Below, one piece after another: positions 28,517 to 57,261 of a stretch of DNA of 64,000 nt. The stretch is from positions 1,216,001 to 1,280,000 of the forward strand of contig CBDCXV010000010.1 in NCBI GenBank assembly GCA_965223905.1. The letters run 5' to 3'. The first letter of the stretch is position 1. Each line of letters starts with the position of its first letter. The translations under genes were made by a program, and so were the position numbers. A model generated the notes under the pieces. The model saw only the letters and a program-made list of their open reading frames with translations. It did not search any database and was not told the origin of the DNA. This DNA comes from Candidatus Latescibacterota bacterium. GTDB lineage: Bacteria > Latescibacterota > UBA2968 > UBA8231.

Positions 28517-28747
28517 AAACCTTCTCGCGGCCCGCCCGGTCCCCGAGCCGCGGCGAGAGTTAGCCTGGCCAGCCCATTGGTTCGGCCGCCTCGGGCGCGT
28601 TACCCGCAGCCCTGAAGGGTTATGCGCACATAGCGACCGCAGAGCCGGAACGGATTTCCAGTAAGGCGTGGGGGCGGTGTAATCGGCGGGAGGGCGCATC
28701 CGGGAAGGGGAGCCAATGGTCCCGGCCCGGTTACGAAATGCCCGGAT

Positions 28748-29143
28748 TCAGAGCGCGGGCAGACTCCAGGGAACGAACAGGGTGGCGAGCAGCAGCAGGA
28801 TGGTCGCCGCAAAGGCCCCCAGCATGGCCTGCAAATGGAGGCGGCCCGCCTTGCGGCGCAGCCGTTCGGCCAGCTCCCGGTCCCGAATCGGCTCGGTTCC
28901 TCCCGCGGTTGCGCGTGCACCACGCGCGGCGAGCAGCACTCAGGTCGATCCGCGGGCCTGCAACAGGCACAGGATGCCCCCCCAGAGCGGCAGGAAGACG
29001 GCGACGCGCAGAGGCAGCGGACTTGCAGTCACGGTGACCAGGGCGGTGAAGCCGAGCGCGAAACAGCAGAGCAGGATCCCGAAGAAGAGGCGGAAGCGCC
29101 GGCTGTCCTCCTCGATGTTGCACAGGTCTGCGCTATTCGTCAC
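28748..29143 (-). CDS. small membrane protein (131 aa) read through an in-frame TGA at 28940-28942; candidate selenoprotein
   Basis: ORFs 28940..29143 and 28748..28939 are contiguous in one frame (LQARGST-TGA-VLLAARG); a SECIS-like hairpin follows. Confidence 0.7.
28911..28927 (-). promoter_or_regulatory. SECIS-like hairpin GCGCGT-GGTGC-ACGCGC
   Basis: Stem starts after a 12-nt spacer from the TGA; GGU-containing loop at +19. Confidence 0.65.
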
Positions 29144-29216
29144 GAGTGATCAGTCCGCCAAAACCGGGGCAACGGCTGCCGGGGTTTCGGGCAGCTTCGG
29201 CGAGCTGTCCCGCACC

Positions 29217-30170
29217 TCACGGCGCCGGAGCCATGGTGTTGCGGATCCAGTCGCGGATGAGGACCGCGGTTTCCTCCGGGTATTCGAGGTGGGGGGCGTG
29301 CCCGCAGTCGTCGAAAACGTGCAGTTTCGCCGCCGGCAGGTCCGCTTCGAAGCGGAGCGCGTTGAGGGCGGGCACGATGCGGTCCTGCTTTCCCCAGAGG
29401 ATCAGGGCCGGCAGCGACAATTCCGAATACTTTCGCGGAAAGGTGTCGATGTCGGGCGGGGTCAGGTTGCGCGCCGTCATCCGGTACGCGAAAGGGGTGC
29501 CGGGCATGGCGAAGTACTCGACCGCCCGGTCGACCAGCCGCTCCGGGATCCGGCGGGGATCGTAATAGATCCGGGAATAGGTCGAGCCGGCGACGCGCCG
29601 CACCAGGCCGCTGGCCACCGCCAGCCGCTGCAGCGTGGGGCTCAGCAGCAGGGCACCCGGTTTTCCAGCGAGGAGCGGGACGAATCCCGGCAGCGGCTGC
29701 GGGTACCCGGCAGCGGAGATCAGCACCAGTCCGCGCAGGTTCAGCCCGGCCGCCCAGGGACGCTCCTGCGGATCGGCACAGGCAAGCCTCAGGGCGATGG
29801 CCCCGCCGAGGGAGTTGCCGACGAGGACGAGGCGGTCGAGCTCGAGGGCGCGGATGAACTCGCCGACGCAGGCAGCCAGCCGGTCGAGTGAGTACTGCTC
29901 GGTGTCGGGCAGGGACCGGAAGCGCGGCCGGCTGCTCTCCCCGAAGCCGACGAGGTCGACGGCGACCGTCCGGAAGCGCTCGCCGAGAAAGGGCTCCACA
30001 AACTCCCAGGTCCCCTTGTGATCGAAGAGGCCGTGCAGCAGCAGCAGCGTGTGGTCGGCGGACAGGTTGCCGTTGTCGGCACAGGCCATCTCGACGGGCA
30101 GGCCGTCGTCACGGCCGACCAGGACCCGGGATGTGCTCACGGAAGGGGTTGGTGGCGCGGTCGCAGCCAC
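29217..30170 (-). CDS. alpha/beta hydrolase
   Basis: LLHG, DLVGFGES, GNSLGG nucleophile elbow, WGKQD, CGHAPH. Confidence 0.88.
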   Translation of the reverse strand: MAATAPPTPSVSTSRVLVGRDDGLPVEMACADNGNLSADHTLLLLHGLFDHKGTWEFVEPFLGERFRTVAVDLVGFGESSRPRFRSLPDTEQYSLDRLAACVGEFIRALELDRLVLVGNSLGGAIALRLACADPQERPWAAGLNLRGLVLISAAGYPQPLPGFVPLLAGKPGALLLSPTLQRLAVASGLVRRVAGSTYSRIYYDPRRIPERLVDRAVEYFAMPGTPFAYRMTARNLTPPDIDTFPRKYSELSLPALILWGKQDRIVPALNALRFEADLPAAKLHVFDDCGHAPHLEYPEETAVLIRDWIRNTMAPAP

Positions 30171-33392: not shown

Positions 33393-34592
33393 CTACAAAG
33401 CGGTGAACAGGTGCGTGAGCCAGGGGATTCCGGCCGTCGCCAGCAGCGAGCCGGCGATCAGGACGAACAGCAGCAGTCCCTTGCCGATGTCCTGTCCCTT
33501 CAGGCTGCCGAGCAGCCGGGGCTCGCGGGACAGGTAGGCGCTGGCGGCGTACAGCTCCTCGCCGAGGAGAGTGTAGTCGCAGGTGGTGACGAAGAACGGG
33601 AGTTGGGTGAAGGCGTCGGTTCCGGCGATCTGGATCGCCCCGGTGGAGGCCCCGGTCTCGGCGAGCAGCAGCGACTCGGCGTAGAAATACCCCATCATGA
33701 TGTGGGCCGCCGGCTTCTCGCGCACCATGATCCCCTCGACCGCGGCGGCGTAGCTGAACTGGTCGGTGCCGGCGATGAAGATGTTGTCCGGGTTGTAGGC
33801 GTCCGGCCGCCCCGCCTCTATGTACGCCTCCTTCACCGTCTCCTGGCTGACCGACATCACCACCGGGTCGGCGTTGGTCACCTTCAGCAGGGTGTCGTAC
33901 TCCGCGGTGCGGCGGGCGACGCGGCCGAGGATGTTGACGGCGGCGATGGTGGAGATCGCGTTCATCTCGCGAAGGCCGTGGATGAAGAGCACCGACCTGC
34001 CCATCTCGGTGGCGCGGCCCAGCGCCTCGTCGAGCGCCTCGAGGCCGGCGATGCGGCGCACGAAGAGGTCCTTTCTTTTCGCCATCGAGATCGAGATCAG
34101 GATCGCCGCGGACAGCGCCACCCCGAGGAGGAGGTTGTTGAGCTTGCTCCAGTCGAACAGCTGCGCCGTCGCCGTCGCCTCGACCGCCTTGCCGCGGCCT
34201 TCCCCGGCGGCGGTTCGCACCCCGACGCGGAGGAAGTAGGGAGTGTCGTCCTTCAGCGCCACCCGCTCTCCGTCGACTTCGTACTTCTCGACGTGGGCGA
34301 ACTGGTGCCGCGAGGTCTCCGGGCCGAAGCCGAAGACCGAGCGGTCTTCCGACTGCAGGCCGGAGCCGGCGGCAACGGAGGCGGCCAGGTGGAACGGCCC
34401 GGTGGCGAGCTCGGCGACGTAGATATTGTAGACGGCGTCCCCGGGGGCGGCCTCATCGAGCGGCCAGGTCACGGTGATGCTGCCGCCGCTGTCGTTCGGG
34501 GTGTCGAAGGCTTCGAAGGGGGGCGGCGCCGCGGCCTGCCCCCAGGCCAGGGACGGAAGCAGGAAGAGCAGCAGCAGGCGGGAGGGTTTCAT
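33393..34592 (-). CDS. signal peptide + FN3-like domain + DUF6754-like membrane protein
   Basis: Signal peptide; DTPNDSGGSITVTW FN3-like strand pattern; RRIAGLEALDEALGRATEMGR and DYTLLGEELYAASAYLS. Confidence 0.75.
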   Translation of the reverse strand: MKPSRLLLLFLLPSLAWGQAAAPPPFEAFDTPNDSGGSITVTWPLDEAAPGDAVYNIYVAELATGPFHLAASVAAGSGLQSEDRSVFGFGPETSRHQFAHVEKYEVDGERVALKDDTPYFLRVGVRTAAGEGRGKAVEATATAQLFDWSKLNNLLLGVALSAAILISISMAKRKDLFVRRIAGLEALDEALGRATEMGRSVLFIHGLREMNAISTIAAVNILGRVARRTAEYDTLLKVTNADPVVMSVSQETVKEAYIEAGRPDAYNPDNIFIAGTDQFSYAAAVEGIMVREKPAAHIMMGYFYAESLLLAETGASTGAIQIAGTDAFTQLPFFVTTCDYTLLGEELYAASAYLSREPRLLGSLKGQDIGKGLLLFVLIAGSLLATAGIPWLTHLFTAL

Positions 34593-34783
34593 TCCATCAA
34601 TACCATTTGAGCTTCAACTGGCTGAAGTCAGCTGCACAAAGCTTCGGCCGCGTCCGGGCAGATTCCGCGGTCGTGCATTCGAGACCCGCCCCCTTGCGCG
34701 AGGAGCAGATTCCTTGCCCAGTGTAGTCGGATTGAAGCGGCCCTTGGGCTGGGCGCTGTCGGATCCGGGTAGTCCCACCATCC

Positions 34784-35911
34784 TCACTGCTCGATCAGCT
34801 CGACGTTGGCGCGCGGGACGACCGCCCGGGTCCCGTCTTCGAACTCGACCTCGAGCACCCGCACCCGGGCCCCGCTTTCGACCTCCCGAAGTTCCGGGAT
34901 GAGGGCGCGCACCCGGGCGACGCGCCCGAAGTGAGGGGCGCGGATTACGCGCAGGGCGTCCCCTTCGGCCATGCCTTCCTGATTCTCTTTCGCCGCGGTT
35001 GCCTCGTCCCGCTCCGGGCTCGGCGAGGGGATGAGGATCTCCGGCCGCTGGACCCCGGCGCGGATCTGGGTCGCACCGGAGATCGAGGCCTGCATGCCGT
35101 CGCACGAGCGCAGGATGTCGAAGGTATTGCGCGCCATGGCTATCTCTCCGAACCCCTCGGTGACGATCACGGTGGTGCCGATATCCTCGGCGCCGGTGAT
35201 GGCGACGCCGAGATCGTAGCCGAGCAGCTCCTTGAGATCGCGGTCGTGGATGCCGCCGGCGATCACCCCGGCGGCCCCGGCCCCGGCCGCCTTCTCCAGC
35301 GCCTCGATGCCGGCGATGCCGCCGGCGACCAGCACGGCGCCGCGGCAGCGCTCGTCGATCTGCCCTGCCCGAAGCGGTTCGTCGTGAGCCTGCGACAGGA
35401 CCCGAAGCGGCCCCCAGCGCTCTCCGCCGACGCCGAATATCCCCTGCACGTAAGCCCCCTCCGTCTCGACGACGACCCCCTCTCCGGGAAGCTCCTCGAC
35501 GACCGCTCCGTCGACGAAGGCGGGAATCTCGACGCTCGACGGCGGCTTGCGCAAGAGCACCTGGCCGGTCACCGAGGAGATGCTCTCGACGACGCCGTCG
35601 GTCTCGGCAGGGACAACGGTCTTGAACCACTTGATCCAGGGCCGCGTCTCGGCCAGCGGCTCCCCCTCCCGCACCGGATCCCCTTCCTGTTTCAGCATGT
35701 AGTGGGGCAGGTCGGCCGCGGTGACGCCGAGCCGGTTGACGAGGTTCTGGGTCACCGCGTCGCCCGGCAGCTCGGTGCGCGCCACTACCTGGTCGCGGGC
35801 GACGCGGTCGCCGAGACGCACCGCGAGCTCGCCGGCCAGGGGCAGCCGCCGCGTTTTCCGCAGTTTCGTGTGGGCGCTGACGCGCAGGCCCGGGGTGTAG
35901 GCGTGGGCCAT
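34784..35911 (-). CDS. hypothetical protein with barrel-sandwich-hybrid-like repeats and a C-terminal KOW-like motif
   Basis: MAHAYTPGL start (TGATG overlap); GDRVARDQVVA / GDPVREGEPLA; TEGFG; GDALRVIRAPHFGRVARV. Confidence 0.75.
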   Translation of the reverse strand: MAHAYTPGLRVSAHTKLRKTRRLPLAGELAVRLGDRVARDQVVARTELPGDAVTQNLVNRLGVTAADLPHYMLKQEGDPVREGEPLAETRPWIKWFKTVVPAETDGVVESISSVTGQVLLRKPPSSVEIPAFVDGAVVEELPGEGVVVETEGAYVQGIFGVGGERWGPLRVLSQAHDEPLRAGQIDERCRGAVLVAGGIAGIEALEKAAGAGAAGVIAGGIHDRDLKELLGYDLGVAITGAEDIGTTVIVTEGFGEIAMARNTFDILRSCDGMQASISGATQIRAGVQRPEILIPSPSPERDEATAAKENQEGMAEGDALRVIRAPHFGRVARVRALIPELREVESGARVRVLEVEFEDGTRAVVPRANVELIEQ

Positions 35912-37746
35912 CAGCCCGGCTCCGCGGCTTCGGGGTAGGATCCGAGCGCCTCGTTCCACGCCTGCACTTGTTCGCGGCGCTCCGCGCCAGACGCGGCGAA
36001 CTGGATCGGCCGCCCGCGCCCGTCGAGCACGAGGCCGGCAGCGCCTCCGCGCACCCGCGCATGCAGCGCGCGGCCGCTGCCCGCCCCGGCGTCCCAGCCC
36101 CGGGCCGGCTCGAGGGAGAGGCCGGCTTCCTCGCCGTCCGCGAGGTCGATCCGCACCAGCTCACCCATCCGCAGTTGGCCGGACACCGATCCAGACGCGC
36201 CGCCGGTGAGGCTGAACTCGCAGCAGACCTCCCCCGGCCTGCCGCTGCCGGCAAGGGCCGCGCAAGTTCCGAGATCGATCAGGCAGTCGCGCTCGAAGAC
36301 ATCGGAGGCGGCCTGTTCGTCCAGGGCAGCCAGGGCCCCGAGGTGGGGCATCATGAATATGCTGTCGACGGCAAGGCGGGTGATCCCCGCCGGCTGGAAC
36401 GCGTCGATCAGCATCGCCGCGGCCTGCACCCGGCGCGGGGCGTGCGAGAGCACTCCGCCGCTGCCGACGAGAAGGTCGAGGGCCGTCATGTCGATCAGGG
36501 ATTCCCCGGTCGCCGACTGCTCGAAGACGTCGGACAGGGTGCGTTCCGACTGCACCCCCTTGAGACCGACGGCGAGGGCGCGGTGCTGGAGGAAGGCGAG
36601 CCGCAGGGCCTCGCGCGCCAGGGCGTGCTCGAGCTGCAGTTCCTCGAGCTGCTGCGGTATGGTGGTCGGCCGGATCATCTTGTTCTTGATGCGGTCGCGC
36701 AGGTCGGTCTCGTCGATGTCGAAAGGTATCCAGCGCATGGCGTTCTCCAGCCCGGCCTCGTTGAGGACGTTGGAGATGCTGTACGACATGCCGAGGTTGG
36801 CGCTCACCGAACGGTTGAAGACCGGCTCTTCCTCATCCGCTGCGGCGCCGTCGGACCTTGGGCGGAAGACGCTGAAGACATCGGTGGTGGCGCCGCCGAT
36901 GTCGACGCCGATGACGTCGATGCCCCGGCGGCGGGCGATGGTCTGGATGATGCGGCCCACCGCGGCCGGGGTCGGGACGATGGGCGCACCGGTCCAGGAC
37001 ATCAGCTTCCGGTACCCCGGGGCCTGCGCCATCACGTGCTCGAGAAAGAGGTCGTGGATCACATGCCGGGCGGGTCCGAGGTTCTCCCTCTCGAGCACCG
37101 GCCGCAGGTTCTCGGTGACGGTCAGGGCGGTTCTCTCCGCCAGCACTTTTTCGATCTCGGAGCGGGCGTCGCGATTCCCCGCGTAGATGAGGGGGAGCCG
37201 GAAGCCGCTGCCGAACCTCGGTCTGGGGTCGGCCGCGGCGATGAACTCGGCGAGCTCGACGACGTGGGAGACGGTGCCGCCGTCGGTGCCGCCGGAAAGC
37301 AGGAACATGTCGGGCCGCAGCCGGCGGATGCGTTCGATCTTCTCGTGGGGAAGCCGGCGGTCGTTGGCGGCGAGGACGTCCATGACGATGGCGCCGGCAC
37401 CCAGCGCGCAGCGCTGCGCGCTTTCCCCCGTCATCGATGCGACCACCCCCGCGACCATCATCTGCAGCCCGCCGCCGGCGCTGCTCGTCGAGATGTAGAT
37501 ATCGACGCCGCGGTCGCCCGCGGCCGGGGTGATGATCCGCTCCCCGTCGAGGATCGTCCGCCCCGACAGCTCCTCCACCTCGGATATGGCGTTGAGCACG
37601 CCGCGCGTGACATCCTCGAAGGGGGCCTCGACCGTGGTCGGGGCCTCGCCCCGGAAGGTCTGCCGGCAGATTCCGTCCGCCTGGCGCTCGATGAGGATCG
37701 CCTTGGTCGTGGTGCTGCCGCAGTCGGTGGCGATGAAGACGTCCAT
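35911..37746 (-). CDS. GlmL/MutL (glutamate mutase L)-like actin-fold ATPase
   Basis: TDCGSTTTK and DIGGATTDVFS phosphate motifs, SSAGGGL, GGTDGG, GSGGVLSHAP. Confidence 0.8.
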   Translation of the reverse strand: MDVFIATDCGSTTTKAILIERQADGICRQTFRGEAPTTVEAPFEDVTRGVLNAISEVEELSGRTILDGERIITPAAGDRGVDIYISTSSAGGGLQMMVAGVVASMTGESAQRCALGAGAIVMDVLAANDRRLPHEKIERIRRLRPDMFLLSGGTDGGTVSHVVELAEFIAAADPRPRFGSGFRLPLIYAGNRDARSEIEKVLAERTALTVTENLRPVLERENLGPARHVIHDLFLEHVMAQAPGYRKLMSWTGAPIVPTPAAVGRIIQTIARRRGIDVIGVDIGGATTDVFSVFRPRSDGAAADEEEPVFNRSVSANLGMSYSISNVLNEAGLENAMRWIPFDIDETDLRDRIKNKMIRPTTIPQQLEELQLEHALAREALRLAFLQHRALAVGLKGVQSERTLSDVFEQSATGESLIDMTALDLLVGSGGVLSHAPRRVQAAAMLIDAFQPAGITRLAVDSIFMMPHLGALAALDEQAASDVFERDCLIDLGTCAALAGSGRPGEVCCEFSLTGGASGSVSGQLRMGELVRIDLADGEEAGLSLEPARGWDAGAGSGRALHARVRGGAAGLVLDGRGRPIQFAASGAERREQVQAWNEALGSYPEAAEPG

Positions 37747-37759
37747 TTTCGATCCTGCC

Positions 37760-38116
37760 CTACTGCCGGTCCGCGTCCCGGTTCTGGCTCCGGTCACCTC
37801 GGCTCGAGATGGCCTCCACCAGGGCGTCGACGGCGCGGCGCTTGGCGAGCAGCCGGGTGAAGCGTTTCAGCTCCTCGGGGTTGAAGATCAGCGAGATAAA
37901 GGGGCTGAGGAAGACGAGAAGCTGACTGCCGACGAAGTTGAGCGGCCGCCCGACTTCGAGGAGCATGACCGCCGGGGCGGTCAGTCCGCGGCGCACGAGG
38001 AAGTCGGCGATCCGCTCGATCAGCTCCCGCTCCGCAGCGTCGATGTCGCGGTCGGCAGCCGATTCCACGGCGAAGGCGTGCGACCACCAGGCCCGCATCC
38101 GCTCAACCCGGGACAT
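37760..38116 (-). CDS. hypothetical protein (118 aa)
   Basis: IADFLVRRGLTAPAVMLLE.GRPLNFVGSQ; overlaps the upstream stop. Confidence 0.7.
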   Translation of the reverse strand: MSRVERMRAWWSHAFAVESAADRDIDAAERELIERIADFLVRRGLTAPAVMLLEVGRPLNFVGSQLLVFLSPFISLIFNPEELKRFTRLLAKRRAVDALVEAISSRGDRSQNRDADRQ

Positions 38117-56205: not shown

Positions 56206-57261
56206 ATGGCGCTGCACTCAAAAGAGAAGACCCTGACCAGCCTCGCCAAGACCTGCGGGTGAGCGGCCAAGGCGAGCCCGGTCGGGCTCGAGAAGCTGTT
56301 GGCCGGCCTGCCGCGCAAGTCGGACCCCAACCTGCTGGTCGGATTCGAGACCAGCGACGACGCCGGGGTCTACCGGCTCGGGGACGACACCGCCATCGTC
56401 GTCACCGCGGACTTCATCACGCCGCCGGTCGACGACCCGTTCACCTTCGGCCAGATCGGCGCCGCCAACTCCCTGAGCGACGTCTACGCCATGGGGGGGC
56501 GGCCGGTCGCATGCCTCAACCTGATCGGGTTTCCCGAGGAGGATCTCGGCCCCGAAGTGCTGCACGGAATCGTCGAGGGGGCGTTGAGCAAGATCACCGA
56601 GGCGGGGGCGGTGCTGGCCGGCGGCCACACCACCAACGACGACGAGCCGAAGTTCGGGCTCTCGGTAACCGGGGTGGTGCACCCGGACAGGTACTGGCGC
56701 AACGCCGGGGCCCGGCCCGGGGACGCGCTGATACTGACCAAGCCGATCGGCAGCGGCGTGATCTTCAACGCCAACCTCAGGAACGCGCTCCCGGCAGCCG
56801 CCCTGAACCGGACCCTGGCGGTGCTGACCGAGCTGAACAGGACCGCGGCCGAGACCCTGGCCCGGTTCGACGTGCACGCGGCGACCGACATCACCGGCTT
56901 CGGGCTCGCCGGGCACGCCCTGGAGATGGCCAAAGGCTCCGGGGTTACCCTGGAAATCGACGTCGACTCGGTGCCGACCCTGCCGGAAGCGCTGGAGATG
57001 TACGAGCGCGGCATCACCACCGGGGCCAACGCCGAGAACCGGGCGCAGGTCGGGGAGGCCGCCCTGTACGAGAAGGAGCTGCCGGGAAAACAGGGCGAGA
57101 TCCTGGTCGACCCGCAGACCAGCGGCGGCCTGTTCGCCGCGGTTCCCGAGGCCCAGGCCGGGGCCGCGGTCGAGGCCCTGCAGCAGGCCGGCGTGGAAAC
57201 CGCCTGCATCGTCGGCCGCGCCGTCAGCCTGTCGCCGCCGCATTACCTGAAGTTCCAGTAG
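56206..57261 (+). CDS. selD: selenide, water dikinase; selenocysteine at codon 19 (TGA 56260-56262)
   Basis: ATG 56206 in frame: ...AKTCG-U-AAK...; DDAGV, ANSLSDVYAMGG, GGHT, TDITGFGL, DPQTSGGL. Confidence 0.93.
56273..56290 (+). promoter_or_regulatory. SECIS element of selD (CGAGCCC-GGTC-GGGCTCG)
   Basis: Perfect 7-bp stem after a 10-nt spacer from the UGA; GGU loop at +18. Confidence 0.8.

Follow-up and report, generated by a model that had tools for sequence, protein, structure and literature searches.

The selenoproteome known to date is dominated by soluble proteins of the thioredoxin fold. In bacteria, the insertion of selenocysteine (Sec) competes with termination, and E. coli fdhF shows that an apical stem-loop of small size, some 11 nt downstream of the UGA, may already be enough. 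Membrane selenoproteins are described as well; Table 1 of a 2026 review (PMC13188914) gives 119 prokaryotic selenoprotein families, each with a domain model, and the new families of deep-Sep (PMC12013277) have NCBIfam models in the same table. The membrane selenoproteins listed there are integral to the membrane, and the Cys that gives way to Sec is located within a membrane helix or beside one. Another described family bears a faint likeness to the locus considered here, namely PF11127 (YgaP-like_TM, formerly DUF2892), with the N-terminal motif N-x-G-x-x-x-R-x-x-R-x-x-x-G, a two-helix membrane hairpin and a conserved Cys after helix 2.

The gene that we compare with these families lies at 28748..29143 on the minus strand of the window, i.e., of the whole 64-kb stretch of DNA that was analysed, and we consider it very probable that, with a TGA at codon 68, it is a real selenoprotein gene of a new family. 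An earlier, sequence-only reading had noticed two short ORFs abutting in one frame around a single TGA, and this was confirmed: the N-terminal half (29143..28940, 67 aa, GTG start) ends in the TGA of codon 68 (28942-28940), while the C-terminal half (28939..28748, 63 aa) continues in the same frame, opens with a GTG directly after that TGA and ends in the TGA at 28750-28748, which is the stop of the whole gene. The GTG at 29141..29143 is the sole start in frame, with a stop three codons upstream and no alternative start ahead of the invariant N9, and the start position is identical in the same-genus orthologs. Read through, the frame has 131 codons and gives 131 residues (...CLLQARGST-U-VLLAARGARATAGG..., with VLLAARG following the U); this translation was verified as the coherent protein that had been proposed, and homologs cover its residues 1-131. 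Over the three codon positions, the G+C content amounts to 0.60/0.50/0.87 upstream of the TGA and to 0.78/0.56/0.80 downstream, next to a GC3 of 0.87-0.92 in four neighbouring genes, and with a GC3 of 0.87 before and 0.80 after the TGA both halves therefore look coding in one frame. Long ORFs in other frames or on the other strand, such as 28716..29891 (+), are the usual by-product of the 66% G+C of the window.

Neither the window protein nor its 12 close relatives gave a meaningful Pfam or NCBIfam match (E <= 1), and all of 59 wider members stay below the Pfam cut-offs. Sub-threshold hits to PF11127 (E 0.004-0.08) were obtained for one of the 13 and eight of the 59 members, the best of them at 17.6 bits against a gathering cut-off of 25.3; the window protein itself has no match to this model at E <= 1, and a PF11127 search of 31 genomes did not find the locus of the window gene. 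The likeness described above, as judged on six DUF2892 sequences of related genomes against the family consensus, is accompanied by differences: DUF2892 has W-C-(P/L) where the family of the window gene has T-C-V-x-L-A-A-R-G, and the latter has an extra, predicted cytoplasmic beta-hairpin and a third transmembrane (TM) helix. Alignment by hhalign with the profile of these six sequences (probability 20%, E 0.0011, 47 columns) covers the N-terminal motif and the helices only and ends before the Cys. Compared in this way, the two families may share a distant kinship, which is not membership. Searching the literature on selenoproteins with DUF2892 or YgaP, we found no Sec form of DUF2892, and searches on DUF2892 and on selenocysteine with Latescibacter turned up nothing apparently relevant.

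The sequence-only reading could not assign the protein to any named selenoprotein family, and the comparison agrees with it: no Pfam or NCBIfam model matches, and none of the 119 families of PMC13188914 fits. At E <= 1, the 13 members hit none of the Pfam, TIGRFAM and NCBIfam models in that table, the comparison covering the families that have such a model and not only a cd or PTHR one. The NCBIfam models of the deep-Sep families (PMC12013277), as given in that table, likewise do not match any of the 13 members. Unlike the membrane selenoproteins in the table of PMC13188914, the window protein has an isolated T-U-V that is not paired as CxxU or UxxC, and it is much smaller than YeeE or the transporters. 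One relative (P0179, 136 aa) carries the precomputed Pfam tag PF27892.1, which is absent from the Pfam copy searched; PF27892 may be a very recent Pfam entry already covering the family, and a literature search on it returned nothing. At the level of structure, Foldseek against the PDB gave no match at E <= 0.001, the best VIA-align Z against the PDB was 7.1, within the noise stated for helical models, and no PDB sequence was hit at E <= 1 when the profile was run against them.

Among 41 related genomes, searched in six frames, there are 13 places at E <= 1.1e-9, the gene's own included, and they span all or almost all of residues 1-131. Six of the 13 (again with the own one) have one internal TGA and seven have none, and by tblastn all seven stop-free places have Cys exactly at the TGA column, e.g., ...T-C-V-F-L-A-A-R-G.... 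In the alignment of these 13 rows (A1), N9, R18, C/U68, V69, G75 and L117 are invariant. Eight further places in the 41 genomes (E 0.0015-0.009) were rejected as relatives, the one that was checked (L038) being an MFS transporter; the weak matches of genus g19 (E 0.0015-0.005) sit inside frames of 425-446 aa. When a phylum sample was searched with A1, the gene was found in 28 of 168 genomes, eight with TGA and 20 with Cys, and the matches extend to residues 125-131. The TGA genomes (G000, G001, G002, G003, G015, G016, G079 and G129) represent five genera and two families, and the '1 TAA' flag in three rows of the sample is the natural stop at the gene end. The gene is thus continuous across a column that holds either Cys or TGA, with similarity on both sides, which bears out what the sequence-only reading had expected of the homologs.

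In a set of 1.84 billion representatives, the A1 profile matched 1752 clusters at E <= 1e-3, with 474 remaining at E <= 1e-10 and 6 at E <= 1e-30; almost all of them are 115-135 aa long. Among the best 150 of the 1752 representatives, which were aligned, 143 have Cys at the column, two (P0097, P0100) stop one residue ahead of it, and five have another residue (S, D, D, G, G); Trp never occurs at the column, either among these 150 or in the 13-row alignment. N9, R18 and C68 are also invariant in the 57-row alignment (A3), from which, however, P0019, P0061 and P0062 (without Cys) and the fragment P0022 were left out, so the fair figure for Cys is 143/150 and not 57/57. The members are named in databases as 'hypothetical protein' or 'uncharacterized membrane protein', while a 96-aa fragment (P0181) is named 'ABC-type enterobactin transport system permease subunit', and a protein atlas has the Cys form P0014 in unannotated clusters only. 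The named source organisms include a Gemmatimonadota and a Zixibacteria MAG.

The machinery for Sec is present in the genome. The window itself holds a Sec-type selD (56206..57261, plus strand; TIGR00476, 367 bits) with one TGA inside (56260-56262, K-T-C-G-U-A-A-K) and the hairpin GAGCCC-GGTC-GGGCTC (56274-56289) 11 nt after it, and this selD is itself a selenoprotein gene. selA (541 bits), selB and a tRNA-Sec (selC) with anticodon TCA were found in the genome, which completes the selA/selB/selC/selD set that the sequence-only reading required; within the 64-kb window, ARAGORN found no tRNA. All 27 of the other gene-carrying genomes have selA over the cut-off, including all seven other TGA forms; this fits the seven TGA forms and does not separate them from the 20 Cys forms.

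A scan of the genome for a TGA plus hairpin within coding-like sequence, in which 60 open codons upstream were needed, gave 10 candidates, with the window gene and selD not among them. Two kinds of candidates were confirmed as family matches with one TGA each, an fdhA-like gene (twice) and a CMD/AhpD-like gene. The fdhA-like gene (G000:C10:10525-11967) has an in-frame TGA in N-C-S-R-A-U-H-A-P and the hairpin GGUUGCCG-GUC-UGGCAGCC 11 nt after it; its second copy (G000:C5:144-1437) has an identical peptide around the TGA and an identical hairpin, and it may be an assembly duplicate because it lies close to the end of a short contig. In the CMD/AhpD-like gene (G000:C9:348318-348515), the TGA stands in C-x-x-U (N-H-C-V-Y-U-T-R-S-H), with a hairpin 17 nt downstream. 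Seven more TGA-plus-hairpin sites in coding-like sequence of this genome (e.g., C2:505659 and C10:436274) were recorded, of which some may be further selenoprotein genes and most are probably due to chance.

For the window gene, the SECIS candidate is the apical hairpin GCGCGUG-GUG-CACGCGC (28911..28927, minus strand), with arms GCGCGTG at 28927-28921 and CACGCGC at 28917-28911 around a GTG loop, i.e., 7 bp starting 12 nt after the UGA, at -12.2 kcal/mol. An alternative drawing, GCGCGT-GGTGC-ACGCGC, puts the start of the loop at +19, and this is the hairpin that the sequence-only reading had pointed out, together with a selD loop at +18; its sequence and position are correct, as is the selD figure (a GGTC loop 11 nt plus 6 bp after the TGA). 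The geometry is similar to that of the other SECIS elements of the same genome, selD with 11 nt after the UGA, a 6-bp stem and a GGUC loop, and the fdhA-like gene with 11 nt, an 8-bp stem and a GUC loop. A possible extended stem (28895..28939, minus strand), in which CUCGC pairs with GCGGG, has an MFE of -19 kcal/mol. When compared with dinucleotide shuffles, this 45-nt fold does not stand out (z = -0.04; 97/200 shuffles fold as well), and neither does the 23-nt core (z = -1.2; 29/200), whereas the selD hairpin has z = -2.1 (9/200); the hairpin of the window gene is, therefore, not above background. In the comparison with the SECIS elements of selD and the fdhA-like gene, no bulged U can be named in it, and Rfam gave nothing at the gathering score within the window.

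A hairpin is nevertheless found at the same place in all TGA-type genes, as the sequence-only reading had anticipated: 8/8 TGA forms have it 10-12 nt after the TGA, the first or the second loop base being G, and the eight forms have five different stem sequences. The hairpin of the window gene is shared by three genomes of its genus g1 (GCGCGUG-GUG-CACGCGC), G003 has the g1 stem with a U-G wobble (GCGCGUG/CGCGCGC), G016 has GCGCGC-GGU-GCGCGC, the two g14 forms have GCCUC-GGG-GAGGC and GCCU-CGGGA-AGGC, 2 nt further upstream, and G079 has UUGCGUG-GGA-CACGCAA. In the window, the hairpin lies within the coding sequence for A-A-R-G-A-R; in g14 and G079 the residues are others (A-A-S-G-R-R-N and A-L-R-G-T-R-N), the codons are others, and the pairing is kept. 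Genus means of the local folding energy are -18.4, -13.8, -11.8, -11.3 and -8.1 for the TGA forms and -15.5, -10.6, -10.2, -10.0, -7.6 and -7.0 for the Cys forms; they overlap (one-sided Mann-Whitney p = 0.089), the comparison covering 26/28 genes because two were missed by the motif search. The Cys forms of genus g13 (L063, L065, L068, L070) carry, at the SECIS position, a hairpin that is just as good, its loop being GGCCU or GGUCU. This hairpin may have survived from an earlier Sec state, or it may follow from the coding of A-R-G-x-R as GCG-CGC-GGN-NNN-CGC. Part of the hairpin in general may be a by-product of the protein sequence, because the codons of A-R-G-x-R are self-complementary by nature. 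Taken as a SECIS, the hairpin is positionally conserved and the evidence is compatible with that function, while the statistics do not prove it; of the equation of this hairpin with a SECIS in the sequence-only reading, the selD-like geometry and the presence in 8/8 TGA forms have stood, and a stability beyond that of shuffled sequences has not.

SECIS evidence that is only compatible, together with the general competition between Sec insertion and termination in bacteria, would leave room for a UGA that is read through, not or not only as Sec, be it by near-cognate Trp or Cys insertion or as a mix of terminated and full-length protein set by the selenium supply. We regard this as improbable, as the column holds Cys, which is the residue replaced by Sec in known families, and never Trp, and as the genome has the full Sec machinery and three other TGA selenoprotein genes, selD included.

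The whole protein was modelled with AlphaFold2 on A3 (mean pLDDT 94.6, pTM 0.86). The model has a helix at 12-38 (TM1), a short helix at 43-47, a helix at 50-65 (TM2), a coil at 66-68 (S-T-U), a helix at 69-73, strands at 76-79 and 82-85, and a long helix at 89-123, the end of which is TM3; together with hydropathy peaks at 23-34, 52-56 and 111-124, it supports the about three TM helices that the sequence-only reading had counted. Averaged over 57 sequences, K+R number 4.5 N-terminally and 7.1 in loop 2, against 1.4 in loop 1 and 0.1 in the C-terminal tail, and by the positive-inside rule the N-terminus and loop 2 would thus be cytoplasmic, which would place Sec68 at the cytoplasmic end of TM2. 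With this topology, Sec68 would be on the same side as N9 and R18, which precede TM1. Prediction of a homodimer (two copies, Cys-form alignment A5) gave no answer, with a score of 0.01.

Conservation reaches 80% or more of the 57 rows for N9, I10, G11, R18, G22, R46, F50, P52 and Q62, and further for T67, C68, V69, A72, G75, G82, D88 and T114; W54 is present in 36/57 members. A second Cys occurs within five residues before N9 in 34/57 members, at position 59 in 14/57 and at position 77 in 14/57, any of these being present in 49/57, and C68 is the sole Cys in 6/57. The window protein has C8 and C59. In the N-terminal CNI motif noticed earlier, N9 is invariant and I10 nearly so, while Cys8 is present in only 2/13 close relatives; likewise, the specific Cys8-Sec68 pair that had been considered is weakened by the lack of Cys8 in most close relatives, although a Cys at most five residues before N9 is found in those 34 of 57 members. 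Position 74 is R in 36/57 and K in 11/57 members, and C68...R74 was considered as a C-x5-R loop of the phosphatase or rhodanese type; this was dropped, the five intervening residues being hydrophobic and predicted to be helical.

That the TGA is a true stop, ending a two-helix protein of 67 residues, with the downstream ORF as a separate GTG gene of 63 residues or left untranslated, is how gene callers read this locus; as had been predicted, they split the gene, and the window's own 67-aa (P0184) and 63-aa (P0193) halves are recorded as separate proteins. Similar split calls are found in other members, as proteins of 66-74 aa that end in ...T right before the column (P0182, P0185, P0183, P0186, P0187 and P0008, besides P0184) and proteins of 54-63 aa that start at the codon after it (P0188-P0198, with P0193 among them). 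A 54-aa group of these (VFLAARGLRNLDAGEEAIED...) and P0182 resemble lineages other than that of the window, P0182 being close to a protein titled Zixibacteria, and judged by these sequences the TGA forms of the family are probably not confined to the phylum of the window. The GTG directly following the TGA and a hairpin not beyond chance also agree with a stop. Nevertheless, we hold termination at this codon to be very improbable: 20 genomes of the phylum sample and 143 of the 150 best representatives have it as an unbroken protein with Cys at this codon, the two halves are always together and in frame in the eight TGA forms, and AlphaFold2 folds both into one confident unit.

Selection was estimated as dN/dS by the method of Nei and Gojobori among three same-genus orthologs, all of them TGA forms. 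Values of 0.20, 0.41 and 0.67 were obtained for codons 1-67 and of 0.29, 0.46 and 0.51 for codons 69-131, while the two other frames of the stretch downstream of the TGA gave 1.2-2.1; since the in-frame values (0.29-0.51) are so far from those out of frame, the part after the TGA is kept as protein. The TGA itself is also present in independent assemblies. DNA contigs from three runs of three studies cover the site (X3 and X7 cover 28775-29400, X10 covers 28600-29322), with 1, 3 and 10 differences elsewhere, respectively, and none listed at 28940-28942; TGC or TGG in reads had been named as evidence against the proposal, and the contigs from these three other studies keep the TGA. A pseudogene, in which a Cys codon (TGC or TGT) had mutated to TGA and the gene was decaying, is scarcely credible even though TGC to TGA is a single change and the Cys has given way to S, D or G in some relatives, as the TGA is kept in eight genomes of five genera and in the contigs of three other studies, and the downstream half has an in-frame dN/dS of 0.29-0.51 with no further stops or frameshifts.

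An RNA-library run contains a 158-nt contig identical to 28989-29146 of the window gene, which falls short of the TGA, and a second contig identical to part of the upstream hydrolase gene (29301-29400). The metatranscriptome run with these two matches is labelled 'sponge metagenome'. These contigs are at most a hint of transcription, as they may stem from DNA, and of habitat.

The window gene is the last of three same-strand genes, after an aldo/keto reductase gene (31076-30174, minus strand) and an alpha/beta hydrolase gene (29217..30170, minus strand), which is 73 nt upstream, matches Pfam Abhydrolase_6 and Abhydrolase_1 and has no NCBIfam model over the cut-off; on its other side, the window gene converges on a TIGR01777/YfcH-type oxidoreductase gene. 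By tblastn, an ortholog of the hydrolase is directly upstream in 17/27 related genomes (31 loci, four of them duplicates). A search for related loci with alignment A2 gave four genome loci and 12 metagenome loci, and in the seven of the 12 that were examined the upstream same-strand gene varies, encoding an aldo/keto reductase in L076, a hydrolase in L077, a large Ig-domain protein in L078 and L080 and a saccharopine-dehydrogenase-like protein in L081, often overlapping or abutting the start of the family gene. There is no constant partner gene among the loci examined, and the neighbourhood names no function. Elsewhere in the window, a same-strand run at 33393-37797 (minus strand) encodes a DUF6754 protein (E 1.6e-115) and a protein matching the Pfam 'MutL' model PF13941 (E 4.9e-129), with an unassigned 391-aa ORF between the two and more unassigned ORFs beside them.

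The reading of the locus as a membrane selenoprotein gene, first proposed from the sequence, is supported by the homologs, by selection, by the Sec machinery and by the independent assemblies, and Sec decoding, which we consider very probable, is the only reading that fits all lines of evidence. We suggest that there is one gene here, for an inner-membrane selenoprotein of 131 residues, and that the UGA of codon 68 would be recoded by SelA, SelB, tRNA-Sec and SelD, with the recoding signal probably being the hairpin that starts 12 nt downstream, within the coding sequence. The protein would have three TM helices, with the N-terminus cytoplasmic and the C-terminus outside, and at the cytoplasmic end of TM2, right behind an almost invariant Thr, there would be Sec68, followed by a short helix, a beta-hairpin and the long helix that turns into TM3. 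The gene would be the Sec form of a large unnamed family of proteins of about 120 aa, in which the Cys appears to be the only invariant reactive residue.

From its position and conservation, the selenol would be a nucleophilic redox or transfer centre at the surface of the inner membrane, whose targets might be oxidants or electrophiles carried in the membrane, or which might pass on sulfur or selenium, and a nearby second Cys may serve as its partner in many members. The specific chemistry that we assign to the selenol here is doubtful at best. It is conceivable, although rather unlikely, that these proteins form a new class of chalcogen enzymes or sensors embedded in the membrane, detoxifying or sensing lipid hydroperoxides or quinone-type electrophiles in the bilayer. 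N9 and R18, both invariant, would then activate the lone Sec or Cys at the inner membrane surface, together with Q62 and T67, which hardly vary. With W54, this set of residues (N9/R18/Q62/T67/W54) would be reminiscent of the tetrad Sec/Gln/Trp/Asn in glutathione peroxidases and of Thr/Arg in peroxiredoxins.

To our knowledge, selenocysteine is used almost only where the residue does demanding chemistry, and the Sec/Cys column would therefore mark the working residue of the family. Residue 68, predicted at the cytoplasmic face, is thus a direct experimental handle. The family counts at least 1752 clusters in public data, has no Pfam or NCBIfam model in the copies searched and is absent from the 2026 list of 119 selenoprotein families in PMC13188914. 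As annotation pipelines cut its TGA forms in two, databases hold meaningless halves of them. The gene very probably adds a small integral-membrane protein to the selenoproteome, and if the family were indeed a chalcogen enzyme or sensor of the bilayer, its Sec forms would mark lineages under stronger oxidative pressure.
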